In this document: piece after piece, positions 52,965 to 59,034 of the stretch
How positions within the stretch are numbered: position 1 is the stretch's first letter
Layout of the letters: each line of letters begins with the position of its first letter
Source of the DNA: Mayamaea pseudoterrestris
Taxonomy: Eukaryota
Direction of reading: 5' to 3'
Assembly: GCA_027923505.1 (NCBI GenBank)
Contig: BROI01000008.1
Location: forward strand, 558,001-622,000
DNA length: 64,000 nucleotides
Made by a program: the position numbers and the translations under genes
The notes under the pieces: generated by a model
The model's database searches: none
What the model saw: only the letters and a program-made list of their open reading frames with translations
Told to the model about the DNA's origin: nothing

Positions 52965-53085
52965 GATACTGTGAACAGAAAAAGGTGGATGATGCGAAAC
53001 TCGAGTGAGTGATGATGCTCATTCAAATTTTGTTGTCGAGAGTGGAAACGATGTCGGTTCGGGACTCAGGACGACGTCCATCAAC

Positions 53086-53353
53086 TGTTGATGCCTCTAT
53101 GGGGAGACACTAGGAATGATCAAAACGATTGACGTGAATTATTATGAGCGGCAATTGTCGCACTGCCTGCCGAGTTCTATCGCTACTTGTGACCGGTGGG
53201 AACCTCGGTTGGCTCGCTGATCTAACCGGCTGTCGCTGAGGCATAACTAAAACACATGTGCTAGGCAACGGTGGAGGCTTCACTTAGGTGGAAGCCGAGC
53301 CAGTGCAGCTTCCTTGGATACCGGATAAGGAACCCGGAAGTGGAGTATCAACA
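53086..53353 (-). repeat. 3' LTR (268 bp)
   Basis: Identical by eye to 58644-58911. Preceded on the sense strand by the short PPT-like CCAGGGTG (53361-53354). Confidence 0.97.
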
Positions 53354-56300
53354 CACCCTGGCAAGGAAGGTGTCTCGGTAGAGACTGTTGCCTTGGGAGG
53401 ATCCTTTACGTAACGGGAGCGCATCTTGCGGTGATGAACTGCAGGATGGTGCTTGGTAAAGTAATCCGCTAAATTGTCGCAGCCGCGGCGCCAATGGAGA
53501 ATAAATTGGCCTTGAGCGATGCGATCTTTGATCCAGTAGAAACGCATGTCCATGGCTTTGGAGCGCTTGTGCTTGACGGTTCCGTTGGCAATGCCAGCGG
53601 CACAGCTATTGTCTGTTTGAATGGGCGTTGGCGGTTGAGGATGGCCGAGCTCTTCAAGTGCTGTGCGGAAAACGGTGGCGTCTTTGGCACAATGGAAGGC
53701 GCCGCCTAGCTCCGCCTTGGCGGCGGAGGAGACAACGCATTTTAATAGCTCGCATCCAACATGGATCGCTCCATTTTCAGGAGGAGGAGGAGCATCAGGA
53801 GATGGTGCTTTCAATGATTCCGCTGGCATGGAGCTGAGGAAATGGAAAGCAGCGATGCGAGAGCGGGCTTTTGCAGCCGTCAAGTAGGAGGCGTCGGTGT
53901 GACAATGGAGGACCATATCACTGGCGTGAAACACAAGAATGGCATCTTGATGACTGGCGGCGTAATCAAGGAATTGAATTAAAGCTTTCTCAGTCTTCTT
54001 GGTGCCTTTGGCCTGTGCCGCTCCGAGTTCATTAACGGCCGTTAGCATGGTATTGTCAATGGCGCGTCCATAGAATAGAAACTTGCCGCAGACTCGCTGG
54101 ATAATGACGCGGCCTTCAGGTGGAAGGGGATCTGTGCAATCATCATCAACATATTGTTGTTTGGCGCCATAGACTGGGGCAGTCCATGGATGAGGCGAAT
54201 CTTGGGGCTTGGACGGCGGCGGATGCTGGAGCTCGTTCAAGGCAGTGGCGACGTAATTGGGCATGCTCATCTCAAGTATGCGCTTGTCATAGTCCCACTT
54301 GAGTGTCATGCCACAGAAGCGGGTGCCTGCGCGATCGACTGTAATGGTATACTGAGAGCGGAGGACGTCAAGTAAGTGCTCGGCGTGGTCGTCTCCAACG
54401 TAGCGGATGCCGAAGTCGTCAACAATGAGCGCAAAGGCAACTGGACGAGTCTTGTGCTTGAAGAGACCAGGAACATGTTCAGAGTCATTGTAACCATTGG
54501 AGCGAAGGAGCTTGCGTAGTCGTAAATAGGAGAGGTAACCAGCTTGTTGTAATCCGTAAATCGTGTTGCTGAGTTCCGCTACGACGTTTCCTTTGCGTTC
54601 AATTTGGGCGATATTGTATTCTGCCTTGATGCATTCGGGTAGAAGGCGAACGGGGATATTCATGTACTCTTTGTCAGGCATTGGTGTACCGAGGTAGAAG
54701 TTGCTAATGTCGGCTGCCATGAATTTTGCTCCTGGGGTGGAGAGCACGCTGTTGAGAAGGAGCTTGACAATGGGTATGTCGGCGCACGGAGACGCTGTGG
54801 TGCCTTCATAAACAAGCTTGTCACCGCCTGCTGTAATGCGAACGCGGTGCTTTTCAACTTTGTCGGGTTTAATGGCGACGACGACGCGAGGATAAGTGAC
54901 TTTGCGCCCGGCAGGAACGGCGTTCGGGCTGATGAGTTTCATGGTATTGGTCCCTTTGGTGTCGTGCTTGGCGCATCCTTGAGCCAGGCGGCCGATTTCC
55001 ATGGCCATGCCTCTGTCCCATTTTGCAGCATCGGGGCCCTTGATGAGGTGGCGATACTCGAGAGCGGCGCCGGTGACTGGATCAATAACGGTGTTGGCTT
55101 GGAGCTTTTTGGCCGACGGACAACTGATGCCACGCGCGCCGCGAGTGACGCGTTTGGAGGCCGTATAATCAGCCTGTGTGACGCCAACTGGAAGGTAAGT
55201 CGTTGCTTTGGTGCTCTTGTAGGGACTGGAACGACGGAAATTGGATCCTTCGTTGGCAGTGAGCTGGGCGAGGCGGGCGGCCTGATCCTTTTTCTGCAGG
55301 CGGCGCCGCTGCGCAGGATTCTTCGTTCGACTGACATACGTCCAGGGCTCGTCGGATGATGTATGGTCCAAGTTAAAACGGACGCGAGCGACGGTGGGCG
55401 CCATGGTGGATTCGGCCAAAGGATCGGCCGCGGCCACCCTGGGAGGTGTCGCATCGGTGGTTGAAGTAGGTGCGTTCGCGTTCGCATCCGGCACCCTGGG
55501 AGGTGTCGCAGTGGTGAGGGAAGGAGGTGCGTTCTCGTCTGCCACCCTGGGAGCTGGCGCAGTGGGCGCTTCTGTAGCTGGAGCGGGCTGAAAAGGCAAT
55601 TGTGATGGGGCCGCCGCTTCTGGTATGCTTTGTGGATCGGCATGAGGCGTTGGCGTGGCGGAGTCGGCGGTTGCTGGTGTCGGAGCGCCAACCTGAGTGG
55701 CTAGTGCCGCGGCGACACGCCGGAGCTCCTCCATGTGGCCAGCGTCGCTGGCAGCAACGGGACCACCTGTGGCGGACCAATTGCGTAGAGCACTTGTCAT
55801 GTCTTTAACTGCTGCGAGGAGGAGTTCCTGGTTGGAGGCGACTGGCATATTTGTCTGAGTAGGAAACCAGGCAAGGGTGTCAGCAATGCGTTCGGCATTT
55901 GTGTCGGTTGCATACACTCGATAGCAGCGGTAATGCTCAAGAGCTGGACCAAGATAATAACCATCAACACCATGAGGTGTGTGCGAGGCGCGGATGCTTG
56001 GTTTTTCATGTATGATGACTCGTGTGCCAGCGGGCGCGAGCGGCGTTTTGTTAAAGTCAAATGCGCCATGGAGCTGCGCGTGGGCCGAGAGCTTTGGATT
56101 GATTCTGGAGCCTCTTAAAAGATTAAGAGTCAAGACGCATTGTGGTAGCAGCTTGTCCCAAAGGTGCAATGGAAACTTGGGATCCGTGCCGCAAAGGGTC
56201 GCCGTGAAGTGATTGATGAACGTGCGAATGGCGCGCTCTGCAGCATTACGCCGATGAATGTGAGGCGGAGCAAGCTGGTAATCAACTGATTCAGACGCCA

Positions 56301-57348
56301 TGTAGTCTTTAAGAGCTTTGGAGGCTTCGTTGTCAAGGCGCTGCAGTTGTGGTTTGAGGCCGCGAGCGCAGAGCAACTTGTGAATCTTGGTATACGCTGC
56401 AAGGATGCTGGCGCCGCTCTTGTTCTTCATTGGTTCGACTAGTATGGCGTTGCTATCTTCATCATAGACAACTAGCATAACAGTGTTGCCAGAGCTGGAC
56501 GGTAACATGAAACGGCCAGTGAGATCGGAATGAATCTTTCCTGTCGCTTCGGTATAATTGGCGTAAACACGCATGGAACGAGTCGTGGGCGGGTCGTTCG
56601 GTGGCGGGTTCATATCAGTTGCTAGCTCATCATCAGCGACTGTAACTGAGTTGGCCTGTTTGGTGCTGCGATAGTTCTTGCGAGTTTGGTCGAGGTGTCC
56701 TTTTGCTGTGGCAGTGGAACGCGGGGGATAAGCTTTAACTTGGGCCGAGGTGACGGCTGGGAAAGTAGTTAGCCGGCCGGCGTCCAATGCTTTGCAAAGC
56801 GTAGAGACTGTAGGATAACCCAGACAAGCGCTAACGTAGGCGACTCGGTCGGCCACTGTGTTGAGCGGTTGATACATGTTGAGCGCGTAATTGACGCTGG
56901 CGGCTGGGCTGCCAGTGGGACGCTGCATGTTGACGGTCCAAAGCTTGGTGTCGGAGCTGCGAGTGCCTGCTAGAACAACTTTATCACCCTTTGTGACTGT
57001 AACTGCAGTGTCTGTAAAGATGGCGGAGCATCCATCGTCACACAATTGACCGATTGAAATGAGAGACTGCGTCATGTCGGGGAAGACGTGTGCTGTACAA
57101 GCCTCAAAGGAGCAACCGGGAAGGTCGAGTTGGACTGTATGAGTTGAATGCATTGTTGTTCCGTTGGGAACGTGGACTGTAAGACTTGGATTGGCCAATT
57201 GCTTGTCGGTGTATGGCAAGTGGCACGAGATGTAGTGTCCAGTACATCCGGTATCGGCTATGGCTAGAGGTATAGGCGGGGAGGAGACATCAAGTTCATT
57301 TAACTCAAGCTTATTAAATGAACTACTTGTAGATGCCGTCCCTCCGGC
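53284..57348 (-). CDS. pol: Retrotransposon Pol (protease, integrase, reverse transcriptase, RNase H), in frame with gag after a UAG
   Basis: PR IADTGCTGHY (upstream of the ORF-track start). IN SDLTGRF/LDNE/NAAERAIR. RT AADISNFYL, IYGLQQAG, LIVDDFG. RH HTDASY, AELG, QTDN, NLADYFTK. Confidence 0.95.
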   Translation of the reverse strand, partial: AGGTASTSSSFNKLELNELDVSSPPIPLAIADTGCTGHYISCHLPYTDKQLANPSLTVHVPNGTTMHSTHTVQLDLPGCSFEACTAHVFPDMTQSLISIGQLCDDGCSAIFTDTAVTVTKGDKVVLAGTRSSDTKLWTVNMQRPTGSPAASVNYALNMYQPLNTVADRVAYVSACLGYPTVSTLCKALDAGRLTTFPAVTSAQVKAYPPRSTATAKGHLDQTRKNYRSTKQANSVTVADDELATDMNPPPNDPPTTRSMRVYANYTEATGKIHSDLTGRFMLPSSSGNTVMLVVYDEDSNAILVEPMKNKSGASILAAYTKIHKLLCARGLKPQLQRLDNEASKALKDYMASESVDYQLAPPHIHRRNAAERAIRTFINHFTATLCGTDPKFPLHLWDKLLPQCVLTLNLLRGSRINPKLSAHAQLHGAFDFNKTPLAPAGTRVIIHEKPSIRASHTPHGVDGYYLGPALEHYRCYRVYATDTNAERIADTLAWFPTQTNMPVASNQELLLAAVKDMTSALRNWSATGGPVAASDAGHMEELRRVAAALATQVGAPTPATADSATPTPHADPQSIPEAAAPSQLPFQPAPATEAPTAPAPRVADENAPPSLTTATPPRVPDANANAPTSTTDATPPRVAAADPLAESTMAPTVARVRFNLDHTSSDEPWTYVSRTKNPAQRRRLQKKDQAARLAQLTANEGSNFRRSSPYKSTKATTYLPVGVTQADYTASKRVTRGARGISCPSAKKLQANTVIDPVTGAALEYRHLIKGPDAAKWDRGMAMEIGRLAQGCAKHDTKGTNTMKLISPNAVPAGRKVTYPRVVVAIKPDKVEKHRVRITAGGDKLVYEGTTASPCADIPIVKLLLNSVLSTPGAKFMAADISNFYLGTPMPDKEYMNIPVRLLPECIKAEYNIAQIERKGNVVAELSNTIYGLQQAGYLSYLRLRKLLRSNGYNDSEHVPGLFKHKTRPVAFALIVDDFGIRYVGDDHAEHLLDVLRSQYTITVDRAGTRFCGMTLKWDYDKRILEMSMPNYVATALNELQHPPPSKPQDSPHPWTAPVYGAKQQYVDDDCTDPLPPEGRVIIQRVCGKFLFYGRAIDNTMLTAVNELGAAQAKGTKKTEKALIQFLDYAASHQDAILVFHASDMVLHCHTDASYLTAAKARSRIAAFHFLSSMPAESLKAPSPDAPPPPENGAIHVGCELLKCVVSSAAKAELGGAFHCAKDATVFRTALEELGHPQPPTPIQTDNSCAAGIANGTVKHKRSKAMDMRFYWIKDRIAQGQFILHWRRGCDNLADYFTKHHPAVHHRKMRSRYVKDPPKATVSTETPSLPGCVDTPLPGSLSGIQGSCTGSAST
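57280..57345 (-). promoter_or_regulatory. Candidate readthrough-stimulating RNA stem-loop 3 nt downstream of the gag UAG
   Basis: Perfect 11-bp inverted repeat at 57293-57303 / 57314-57324 with a 10-nt loop, flanked by further pairings GGCAUC/GAUGUC and GGAGG/CCUCC. Confidence 0.65.
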
Positions 57349-58470
57349 CTATTCTCCTTGCGCGCGACTGCGTTGGTTGCGGTAGACGAAATTGGTTTCG
57401 TTGCCGCCCATCTTGTTGGCACTGGTGGCTGCCTCTTGGTGGCCTGGACTGCGACGGTTGCACTGCATGCTTGTATGTCCACAGTAGCCATGAGAATGAC
57501 AGTACTTCTTGACGCGAGGAGCGTTGTTGCCGTTGTTGTTGTTGCCTTGGTTGTTGTTGTTGCCATGGTTGTTGTTTGGCGGTGGCGGCGGATTTGCCGG
57601 CGCACGGTGTGTCGCAGCGATTTGCTCTCGGACAGCAGCTGCGACAGCGGATGCAAAGTTTGCCTGCGCCAAAAATCCAGCGTCTGCAACAGTCTTCTCT
57701 TGGCGGCGAGCTTTGTCCACACGCTTGAGCCAAGAGACAAAGGCTGGCCAGGTTTCAGCAGCTTGCCCTGGGATCTGTTGCTCAATGGCGCGAGCGTGCA
57801 AGTCGGCTTTGAACTGGCCAGTTGCAGCCATGGCGGCCACGGCAAAACGGATGGAGGTGGCGTCCGACATCGGGTCGTTGGTTGCTGCAGCAAGGCGACG
57901 AATGCGCTCCATCTTGCCAGTGTACGTTTCGACAGATTCACTGAGGTTGAACGGGTCGCTCGCCATGGCGTAGTTCGCCTCGATTTGCTGCGGCGTGGCG
58001 GTGCCGTACTCGTCCTTGATGTGCTGGCGAAGCTGAAGAATGGTGACTTCCTCCATACCCGTGGCTGGGTCCTCCAAAGACTGAAGATAGATGGAAGGAA
58101 TCGCCTTGACGACTTGCGCGATCAAAGCCGTGGCGACCAAGTTGTTCTTGTTGAAAGCAGTGAGGTCGGCGTTGAACGCGCGGTTGGCCTCGGCGATCTG
58201 TGCGCCAGTAGCTCCTGCTGGAATGTCGAGCACTGGGAATGCCACAGGAGCATAAACTTGCGCAGAGCGTAGAGCGTACTCAGCTGGTGTGACTACCAAG
58301 TGAACGTGGCCAGCGCCGCCGTTGCCGTACTGACTGGTGACGGAGCGCGCGTTCTGGAGGAGCTCCTTGTCAAACTGGAGCGCCTCATCGAAGGTAATGG
58401 TGCCAGTAGAGCCAAGAACGGTGAGAGTTTCCAGCGGAAAGACAATCTTGGGGCTGCTTGAATCCGTCAT
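57349..58470 (-). CDS. gag: Retrotransposon Gag
   Basis: 373-aa ORF with GGAGHVHLV (CoDi-like), an Asn-rich tract and the knuckle YCHSHGYCGHTSMQC. Confidence 0.92.
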   Translation of the reverse strand: MTDSSSPKIVFPLETLTVLGSTGTITFDEALQFDKELLQNARSVTSQYGNGGAGHVHLVVTPAEYALRSAQVYAPVAFPVLDIPAGATGAQIAEANRAFNADLTAFNKNNLVATALIAQVVKAIPSIYLQSLEDPATGMEEVTILQLRQHIKDEYGTATPQQIEANYAMASDPFNLSESVETYTGKMERIRRLAAATNDPMSDATSIRFAVAAMAATGQFKADLHARAIEQQIPGQAAETWPAFVSWLKRVDKARRQEKTVADAGFLAQANFASAVAAAVREQIAATHRAPANPPPPPNNNHGNNNNQGNNNNGNNAPRVKKYCHSHGYCGHTSMQCNRRSPGHQEAATSANKMGGNETNFVYRNQRSRAQGE

Positions 58471-58631
58471 GGTGACGAAGGGAAGAAGAGCGGAGGATCA
58501 CACTCGGAGGGAAGAGCTGTGGTGGCTCGATTCGTTCAGTCGCTGGATGCAAAAGACGAAGGTGGTAACGTGAGTGCTCTTTAGATTGTTAAACGAAAGA
58601 GTCAATGATGTTACTTGCCGGATATTATCAT

Positions 58632-58643
58632 ATAATTCACGTC
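58632..58643 (-). promoter_or_regulatory. Primer-binding site complementary to the element's own 5' LTR (candidate self-priming PBS)
   Basis: Sense GACGTGAATTAT directly abuts the LTR end and is the exact reverse complement of LTR segment 58700-58689. Confidence 0.75.
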
Positions 58644-58911
58644 TGTTGATGCCTCTATGGGGAGACACTAGGAATGATCAAAACGATTGACGTGAATTAT
58701 TATGAGCGGCAATTGTCGCACTGCCTGCCGAGTTCTATCGCTACTTGTGACCGGTGGGAACCTCGGTTGGCTCGCTGATCTAACCGGCTGTCGCTGAGGC
58801 ATAACTAAAACACATGTGCTAGGCAACGGTGGAGGCTTCACTTAGGTGGAAGCCGAGCCAGTGCAGCTTCCTTGGATACCGGATAAGGAACCCGGAAGTG
58901 GAGTATCAACA
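58644..58911 (-). repeat. 5' LTR (268 bp)
   Basis: Identical by eye to 53086-53353 and lies upstream of gag. Confidence 0.97.
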
Positions 58912-59034
58912 TCAACACAATCGCGACAATCCGCGACAGCTGTCAATCAGCATGATGGAGCGAGTGTGGCGTTTTAGGCAATATCTAACCGCACTACGTG
59001 ACATAGACAACGACGTGAAACATCAACTATAATC

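Follow-up and report, generated by a model that had tools for sequence, protein, structure and literature searches.

A candidate stop-codon readthrough signal with a conserved 3´ stem-loop at the gag-pol junction of a diatom copia-type retrotransposon

Readthrough of a stop codon between gag and pol is a textbook feature of the gammaretroviruses. Here we describe a candidate signal of this kind in a copia-type retrotransposon of Mayamaea pseudoterrestris (NCBI GenBank assembly GCA_027923505.1, contig BROI01000008.1). The analysed stretch, referred to as the window, comprises 64,000 nucleotides (contig positions 558,001 to 622,000 of the forward strand), and all coordinates of the element are those of the window. 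An intact Ty1/copia element occupies 53086–58911 on the minus strand, as read from its pair of long terminal repeats (LTRs), its target duplication and its open reading frames (ORFs). Its gag and pol genes lie in one frame and are separated by a single UAG, which is followed by a hairpin. An earlier note on this stretch had proposed a structured readthrough signal at this site, and comparative sequence data support the proposal: stops with stem-loops are present in seven elements, and a GGG codon downstream of the stop is invariant. The UAG (57351–57349) is probably a programmed readthrough signal, stimulated by a conserved 3´ stem-loop, in an element that resembles the CoDi (Copia from Diatoms) elements.

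The best-known relative in function is murine leukaemia virus (MuLV), in which a UAG separates gag and pol, a purine-rich tract lies past the stop, a 3´ RNA structure is essential and the ratio of Gag-Pol to Gag is low (PMC3159437). The Mayamaea element likewise has one in-frame UAG at the gag-pol boundary, a purine-rich tract after the stop and a downstream RNA structure, here a predicted one. The structure of MuLV is a compact pseudoknot 8 nt after the stop, whereas that of the present elements is an irregular stem-loop of 71–113 nt with a basal helix 4 nt after the stop, and the one is a retrovirus while the other is a diatom copia-type retrotransposon. In its proposed working, the closest analogue is provided by the extended stem-loops described for alphaviruses, tobra-, peclu-, furo- and pomoviruses and coltiviruses (Firth et al., 2011; PMC3159437). 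There a long-range stem closes 100–150 nt directly 3´ of the leaky stop, with compensatory changes in the stem and a variable enclosed region, and in alphaviruses such stem-loops are described as raising readthrough 3- to 14-fold (PMC3159437). The sequences are unrelated to those described here, which carry G-N-GGG at +5 to +9 after the stop, and the genetic element is a different one.

Copia-type elements were described in the earlier note as typically using a single ORF, splicing or frameshifting. The generalization is fair, but a precedent for an in-frame stop exists in Tca2, a Ty1/copia element of Candida albicans. Tca2 has a single in-frame UGA between gag and pol and a predicted 3´ structure, and its Pol comes from the full-length RNA; it belongs to a fungal lineage, and its predicted pseudoknot is unlike the structure found here (PMC2194720). 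The Ty3/gypsy elements Tj1, Tcry1 and Tosmo1-3 of fission yeasts carry an in-frame UGA at the Gag-Pol junction that is conserved between species and was taken as programmed readthrough. They differ in belonging to another superfamily and in having a strict 8-nt context (GAA-UGA-CU) without a reported downstream structure (10.1101/2022.12.06.519325). The CoDi elements of Phaeodactylum and Thalassiosira (Maumus et al., 2009; PMC2806351) are elements of the same kind as the one in the window, and the main text of that paper gives no recoding or RNA-structure analysis. Retroviral -1 frameshift sites, which combine an X_XXY_YYZ heptamer with a structure, resemble only the junctions of two relatives (L001 and L002, see below); the window element needs no frameshift.

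The in-frame UAG and the hairpin downstream of it

The gag ORF (57352–58470, minus strand) comprises 373 codons from the ATG at 58470 and ends CAA GGA GAA, followed by the TAG at 57349–57351. The pol ORF (53284–57348, minus strand) continues in the same frame for 1354 codons and terminates at a TAA (53286–53284) within the 3´ LTR. Stop-to-stop ORFs on the minus strand accordingly run from 57349 to 58497 and from 53284 to 57348, and only two stops occur in the 1729 codons from the gag ATG, namely the UAG at codon 374 and the terminal TAA. The domain order of pol appears to be protease, integrase, reverse transcriptase and RNase H (PR-IN-RT-RH), as read from translation motifs (DTG, then the D..D..E region, then VDDF). 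The protease active site D-T-G (57247–57255, minus strand) is formed by codons 32–34 after the UAG within the motif IADTGCTGHY, and the first in-frame pol AUG (57151–57153, minus strand) is codon 66 and lies 3´ of this active site. A single in-frame stop thus precedes an ORF that would not be made in full on its own. This minus-strand reading bears out what the earlier note had stated about the end of gag, the frame that stays open to 53284 and a protease motif about 30 codons past the UAG and ahead of any pol AUG. A -1 frameshift site was considered for the window element and ruled out, gag and pol being in one frame; the heptamer is present only in L001 and L002.

A single hairpin, long and irregular, is predicted for 57360–57255, with a minimum free energy (MFE) of -37.8 kcal/mol and a z-score of -4.71, and none of 200 dinucleotide shuffles is as stable (ViennaRNA). 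The whole unit of stop and stem-loop can be delimited to 79 nt (57273–57351, minus strand; MFE -32.1, z -5.17, 0/500 shuffles as stable). Forty control windows of this length were taken from the element, and the 79-nt unit, with a z-score of -5.02, lies below all of them. From the stop onwards, the parts are arranged as 4 nt, GAGGG, a 2-nt bulge, a 6-bp helix, an internal loop and a 12-bp apical stem. GAGGG (57340–57344, minus strand) occupies +5 to +9 after the stop and forms the 5´ arm of the basal helix; its last three bases are a GGG codon. The 5´ arm of the second helix, GGCAUC (57332–57337, minus strand), pairs in the fold with 57291–57286 over 6 bp. The 3´ arms occupy 57281–57291 (minus strand), with GAUGUC at 57291–57286 and UCCUC, the partner of the basal helix, at 57285–57281; the latter falls within the codons for Ser-Ser-Pro-Pro. 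The apical stem (57293–57324, minus strand) comprises 12 bp (57324–57313 with 57304–57293) closed by the 8-nt loop AAGCUUGA (57312–57305). The hairpin of the earlier note is therefore real, but its apical part was given there as an 11-bp stem with a 10-nt loop because the closing U.G pair was left uncounted.

The second helix and the apical stem by themselves account for -16 kcal/mol. An alternative register of the basal helix, which matches that of the relatives, is less stable by about 1.5 kcal/mol than the optimum for that stretch. Pseudoknots are beyond the scope of the folding tools used. A search of Rfam revealed no relevant family for the hairpin, its two sub-threshold matches being chance matches on the opposite strand. 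The apical loops of two of the seven elements hold 6-nt palindromes, AAGCUU in the window (within 57305–57312) and UAUAUA in the relative L007. Such loops could make loop-loop (kissing) contacts like those of retroviral dimerisation sites.

Stops and stem-loops in related elements

Three non-self homologues of the Gag protein were found in the protein database, all named Mayamaea pseudoterrestris (92, 86 and 64% identity). All three are gag-only proteins that end at the same aligned residue, an invariant E. A search for longer proteins in which gag is fused to pol found none, which is weak evidence. Among 79 pol relatives in the same database, none is longer than 1385 aa, and in 77 of the 79 the match to the start of the window pol lies within 96 residues of the protein's own N-terminus; the other two are gene models of Phaeodactylum in which Gag is fused to PR-IN. 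These lengths and N-terminal starts indicate that a separate gag ORF is the rule. The best named pol relatives are proteins of Phaeodactylum tricornutum and Fragilaria crotonensis (43–53% identity), which places the element nearest to diatom copia elements.

DNA of more distant relatives was obtained from three sources: a metagenome scan (L001 and L002, which form one family), a scan of prokaryote genomes (17 loci) and a search of the 13 metagenome-assembled genomes (MAGs) in which stray diatom-like contigs occur, which added L029. Scans of viral contigs with the gag alignment, the pol N-terminus and the pol alignment gave no matches. The 17 loci that matched the pol alignment come from MAGs labelled bacterial (Gloeobacterales, Sphingobacteriaceae, Alphaproteobacteria, Variovorax, Propionivibrio and others), and one Sphingobacteriaceae MAG holds at least four such diatom-like contigs. 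Most of the MAG loci are eukaryotic contigs with diatom-like copia elements, i.e. binning contamination.

The gag-pol junction is readable in eight of the relatives' loci. Six have a single in-frame UGA there: L003 (1372–1374), L004 (1518–1520), L007 (2089–2091), L008b, the second element of L008 (5269–5271), L011 (3690–3692) and L029 (1005–1007). In the other two, L001 and L002, pol lies in the -1 frame; none of the eight junctions has an uninterrupted gag-pol frame. Diverged relatives thus retain a stop at this boundary. Over the first 330 residues of pol, which cover PR-IN, the six are only 27–46% identical to one another and to the window element, and on these grounds the gag-stop-pol arrangement is old. 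The use of UAG in the window and of UGA elsewhere would fit selection for a stop as such rather than for a particular sequence.

Two of these loci have further peculiarities. L004 changes frame at approximately 1600–1625, within a run of 12 C that lies 3´ of its UGA and stem-loop and codes for poly-Pro in both frames; the change is probably a homopolymer indel or an assembly error. L008 (1–6412) carries two elements in tandem on one contig, the second of which gives the junction compared here; the first has an in-frame TAG inside pol (467–469), apparently a nonsense mutation.

After all seven stops (window and six relatives), an extended hairpin begins no more than 7 nt past the stop and spans 71–113 nt with 24–35 pairs. 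The z-scores of the exact hairpin segments, the window first, are -5.0, -4.1, -2.5, -5.2, -3.0, -3.9 and -7.8. In 280 control windows from the same elements the mean is -0.19 (sd 1.12); 2.5% of the controls reach -2.7 or lower, and none reaches -4. At six of the seven junctions the z-score is lower than in any of the 40 controls taken from that element; L004 is matched or beaten by 3 of 40. The ends of these segments had been picked after folding, and the test was therefore redone with a fixed 120 nt after each stop. The z-scores then become -2.7, -4.1, -2.2, -5.6, -1.6, -3.5 and -6.9 (window first), compared with a mean of -0.46 (sd 1.26) in 175 controls (one-sided Mann-Whitney p = 2.5e-7).

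The seven hairpins share a register with respect to the stop. With the stops aligned and no gaps introduced, positions +5 to +11 read GAGGGAC, GAGGGAC, GAGGGGA, GAGGGGC, GAGGGAA, UAGGGGU and GUGGGCC. G-N-GGG is present at +5 to +9 in six of the seven elements and pairs with a C-rich tract 60–100 nt downstream, which is UCCUC, CCCUC, CCUC, CCCC or GCCCAC depending on the element. All seven elements have GGG as the third codon past the stop. GGG makes up 4–26% of the other glycine codons of each element (4% in the window), and the product of these frequencies is 8e-8; on codon usage, the constraint on GGG thus acts at the level of the nucleotides and not of the protein. The base directly past the stop varies (G, U, C, G, U, G, G), and four of the seven stops are preceded by AA.

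Pairing is kept where the sequence is not. The pair table was built from individual MFE folds anchored on the stop, MAFFT alignments having been out of structural register. In this stop-aligned numbering, positions 8 and 10–12 are a paired G except in L011 (a paired U at position 8) and L008b (an unpaired G at position 12). Position 9 forms an A-U pair in three elements and a U-A pair in L029, a compensatory change. Positions 15–20, in the next helix, show three to four different pair types per column over the seven elements, and the inner helices differ in sequence among the elements while their pairing is retained. The specificity of the arms is also evident from an arm swap: the first 30 nt folded with their own next 90 nt give a native mean of -25.7 kcal/mol versus -18.9 kcal/mol for swapped arms, and 2 of 5040 permutations, the native assignment included, are as good. 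A conserved 3´ structure with compensatory changes is thus present. The earlier note had suggested that related elements be inspected for a stop with a covarying hairpin, and both were found, the stop as a UGA in six of eight junctions and the co-varying arms in seven elements. As for a sense codon in sister copies, which that note would have counted against the signal, the three paralogous Gags and the six relatives point in the opposite direction.

The two relatives with pol in the -1 frame are from marine metagenomes. In L001 (approximately 575–660) and L002 (284–365), the heptamer A_AAA_AAC stands directly before the gag UAA. A stem-loop begins 3 nt past the heptamer and opens with GGG (z -3.79, 0/200 shuffles as stable). 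This heptamer and stem-loop in a -1 frame relative indicate that translational recoding at the gag-pol junction is a trait of the clade. The comparison suggests that the stem-loop is the stable part of the junction and that the recoding event is interchangeable. L001 looks like a decayed copy, its Gag Cys/His knuckle being interrupted by a TGA.

Anatomy and annotation of the element

The element is bounded by direct LTRs of 268 nt with TG...CA ends (TGTTGAT...ATCAACA), as found by comparing the copies and inspecting their termini. The 5´ LTR (58644–58911, minus strand) and the 3´ LTR (53086–53353, minus strand) are 100% identical; a repeat search reports them as 269 nt (58643–58911 identical to 53085–53353), one adjoining base matching too. 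Comparison of the flanks revealed a 5-bp target-site duplication, GTTGA, upstream (58912–58916, minus strand) and downstream (53081–53085, minus strand). The identical LTRs and the target duplication indicate a young, apparently intact copy. The sequence that follows the 5´ LTR (58583–58642) is unlike the usual tRNA-iMet primer-binding site.

One copy of the element is present in the 64-kb window. The family is multi-copy: sequencing runs from two studies, which together represent at least three organisms, contain contigs at 80–100% likeness. A more diverged contig from another organism spans 57272–57418 of the element with 18 differences and 7 gap letters. When sequencing runs, which were runs of contigs and not of RNA, were aligned to the element, no joint across the stop was present among the matches listed.

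Gag contains an Asn/Gly-rich tract and an unusual Cys/His knuckle, YCHSHGYCGHTSMQC, and matched no Pfam family. Its C-terminus (57352–57480) is without the classical CCHC knuckle and instead carries YC(H/W)(S/T)HG...HTS..C followed by (K/T/I)(M/L)GG, a motif that is also present in Phaeodactylum and in several MAG-borne relatives. The Asn/Gly-rich low-complexity tract lies upstream of this motif and varies in length among the paralogues. For pol (53287–57348), Pfam returned RVT_2 at residues 826–1034 with 30.2 bits, slightly below the cutoff of 31.6, and no PR, IN or RH model matched despite clear motifs. Because Pfam sees only a sub-threshold RVT_2 and nothing in Gag, the element is placed far from the usual copia models, and members of this clade will be under-annotated by standard domain scans. 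In the annotated genome, Gag seems to be entered as a hypothetical protein, and pol seems to be missing in the range of 744–2370 aa.

Proposed working, rival explanations and meaning

By analogy with MuLV and the alphavirus extended stem-loops, we infer that ribosomes read through the UAG. Most ribosomes would stop there and release Gag. A minority would decode the UAG with a near-cognate tRNA, whose amino acid would be the inserted residue, and continue in the same frame to give Gag-PR-IN-RT-RH. At a low ratio, this Gag-Pol would bring protease, integrase and reverse transcriptase into the particle. The stimulator would be the extended stem-loop that begins a few nucleotides past the stop. 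With the stop in the A site, the mRNA channel would enclose GAGGG, which would act as the sequence-specific spacer does in MuLV, and the second helix and the apical stem would stand at the entrance of the channel. GAGGG could then have two roles, as a sequence-specific spacer and as a lock on the structure between ribosomes.

Several observations weigh against programmed readthrough with a stimulatory stem-loop. The two closest named pol relatives, gene models of Phaeodactylum (48 and 53% identity), fuse gag to PR-IN without a stop; this could mean a sense codon or a modelled intron. With the fixed window, two junctions are weak, L008b with a z-score of -1.55 and L004 with -2.16, a value that 3 of 25 controls equal or surpass. 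Ranked by raw MFE, the 120 nt that follow the stop are ordinary within the window element (rank 340 of 1688 codon positions) and in L008b (rank 342 of 748). This rank is uninformative because GC-rich parts of the elements fold more strongly, and since the raw energy is not exceptional, the hairpin signal emerges only after correction for composition. A covariance model built from the window hairpin alone recovers only L003 of the six relatives, in the correct register (E 0.084 in 100 kb; E 0.0007 in 835 nt), and with its filters off not even L003 is listed. The 3´ arm falls on a stretch that encodes a conserved motif, S/P-P-P ahead of the protease, and part of the conservation of the arm may be at the protein level. 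The 7–12 nt spacer is absent: the basal helix starts at +5, leaving a spacer of 4 nt, and the second helix at +12, and the base after the stop is variable, whereas the viral extended stem-loops are described with spacers of 7–12 nt and mostly with UGA-C (PMC3159437). Finally, Tca2 is the one bench-studied precedent among copia elements, and its junction alone is reported to have given no readthrough in S. cerevisiae (PMC2194720).

The result for Tca2 also bears on an explanation in which the stop is conserved and has a function but Pol arises by other means, such as a splice, a separate pol transcript, internal initiation or reinitiation, and in which the hairpin serves packaging, dimerisation or RNA stability. 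The same report describes a minor internal promoter within the gag-UGA-pol junction (PMC2194720), and the loop palindromes AAGCUU and UAUAUA could make the loop-loop contacts that dimerisation would use. We regard this explanation as unlikely. An independently started Pol would be without a protease, the active site of which is encoded ahead of any in-frame pol AUG. In seven diverged elements the structure stands at a fixed distance from the stop and GGG is invariant, both of which link the structure to the stop and not to some general function of the RNA. The solution of the sister lineage, a canonical -1 heptamer and a stem-loop at the corresponding site, is a translational one. The 30 nt that precede the L004 stop contain no GT dinucleotide, and no conserved splice donor is evident there; a dimerisation-type role is at odds with a palindromic loop in only 2/7 elements.

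Readthrough could also be real and the hairpin incidental. Constraints on the protein, namely Gly after the stop and Ser/Pro-Pro ahead of the protease, together with AU-rich palindromic coding sequence would then account for the apparent conservation, and leakiness would derive from the stop and its immediate neighbours. The coincidence of the 3´ arm with the S/P-P-P motif, which occurs in the Phaeodactylum models too, agrees with this, as do the ordinary rank of the raw energy and the AA before 4/7 stops, AA being cited as promoting readthrough in yeast (10.1101/2022.12.06.519325). However, a protein constraint fails to explain why the rare GGG is used in 7/7 elements, and it leaves unexplained the double change from A-U to U-A in L029, inner helices that are complementary but different in sequence, the outcome of the arm swap (2/5040) and z-scores far past those of control windows. 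The variable base after the stop fits no known short leaky context. An incidental hairpin is accordingly improbable.

A copy-specific nonsense mutation in a dead element, followed by a hairpin that arose by chance, would be compatible with the single copy in the window. It is highly improbable, given that the paralogous Gags (64–92% identity) end at the same residue and six distant relatives have a stop at the same boundary, that the LTRs are identical and the target duplication intact, that no other defect occurs in 1729 codons and that the family is multi-copy. The argument of the earlier note that a stop at the Gag/PR boundary is not a random nonsense mutation thereby gains the paralogues and the six relatives as evidence. 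A host that decodes UAG (or UGA) as an amino acid, leaving no stop at all, would agree with the open frame only, and has a negligible chance of being correct, since UAG occurs once in 1729 codons and exactly at the gag-pol boundary, the relatives have one UGA there and the annotated Gag paralogues end there.

Programmed readthrough at a structured UAG is thus the reading we favour for the Mayamaea element. A broader proposal is put forward tentatively, as one that may well not hold: the stem-loop that opens with the invariant GGG might be a previously undescribed, clade-wide recoding module that serves readthrough (UAG/UGA) and -1 frameshifting in sister lineages, and with GAGGG, at a spacer of 4 nt, acting within the mRNA channel and not as part of the roadblock it might represent a distinct class of eukaryotic readthrough stimulator. 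A full-text literature search found no description of a conserved readthrough signal in diatom elements; the per-element supplementary table of the CoDi paper (PMC2806351) may already record in-frame stops.

If the signal works, it would be the first candidate recoding element in diatoms, and its seven natural variants would provide a ready mutational series. Readthrough and frameshifting would be seen to substitute for each other at one junction. The signal would also account for the way in which gene callers divide these elements, with Gag as a "hypothetical protein" and pol left unannotated, and it would offer diatom engineering a compact natural device for a fixed, low ratio of two proteins. 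Copia elements are described as making up a large part of some diatom genomes and as responding to stress (PMC2806351), and for this reason the setting of the Gag:Pol ratio would bear on the activity of these elements in diatoms.

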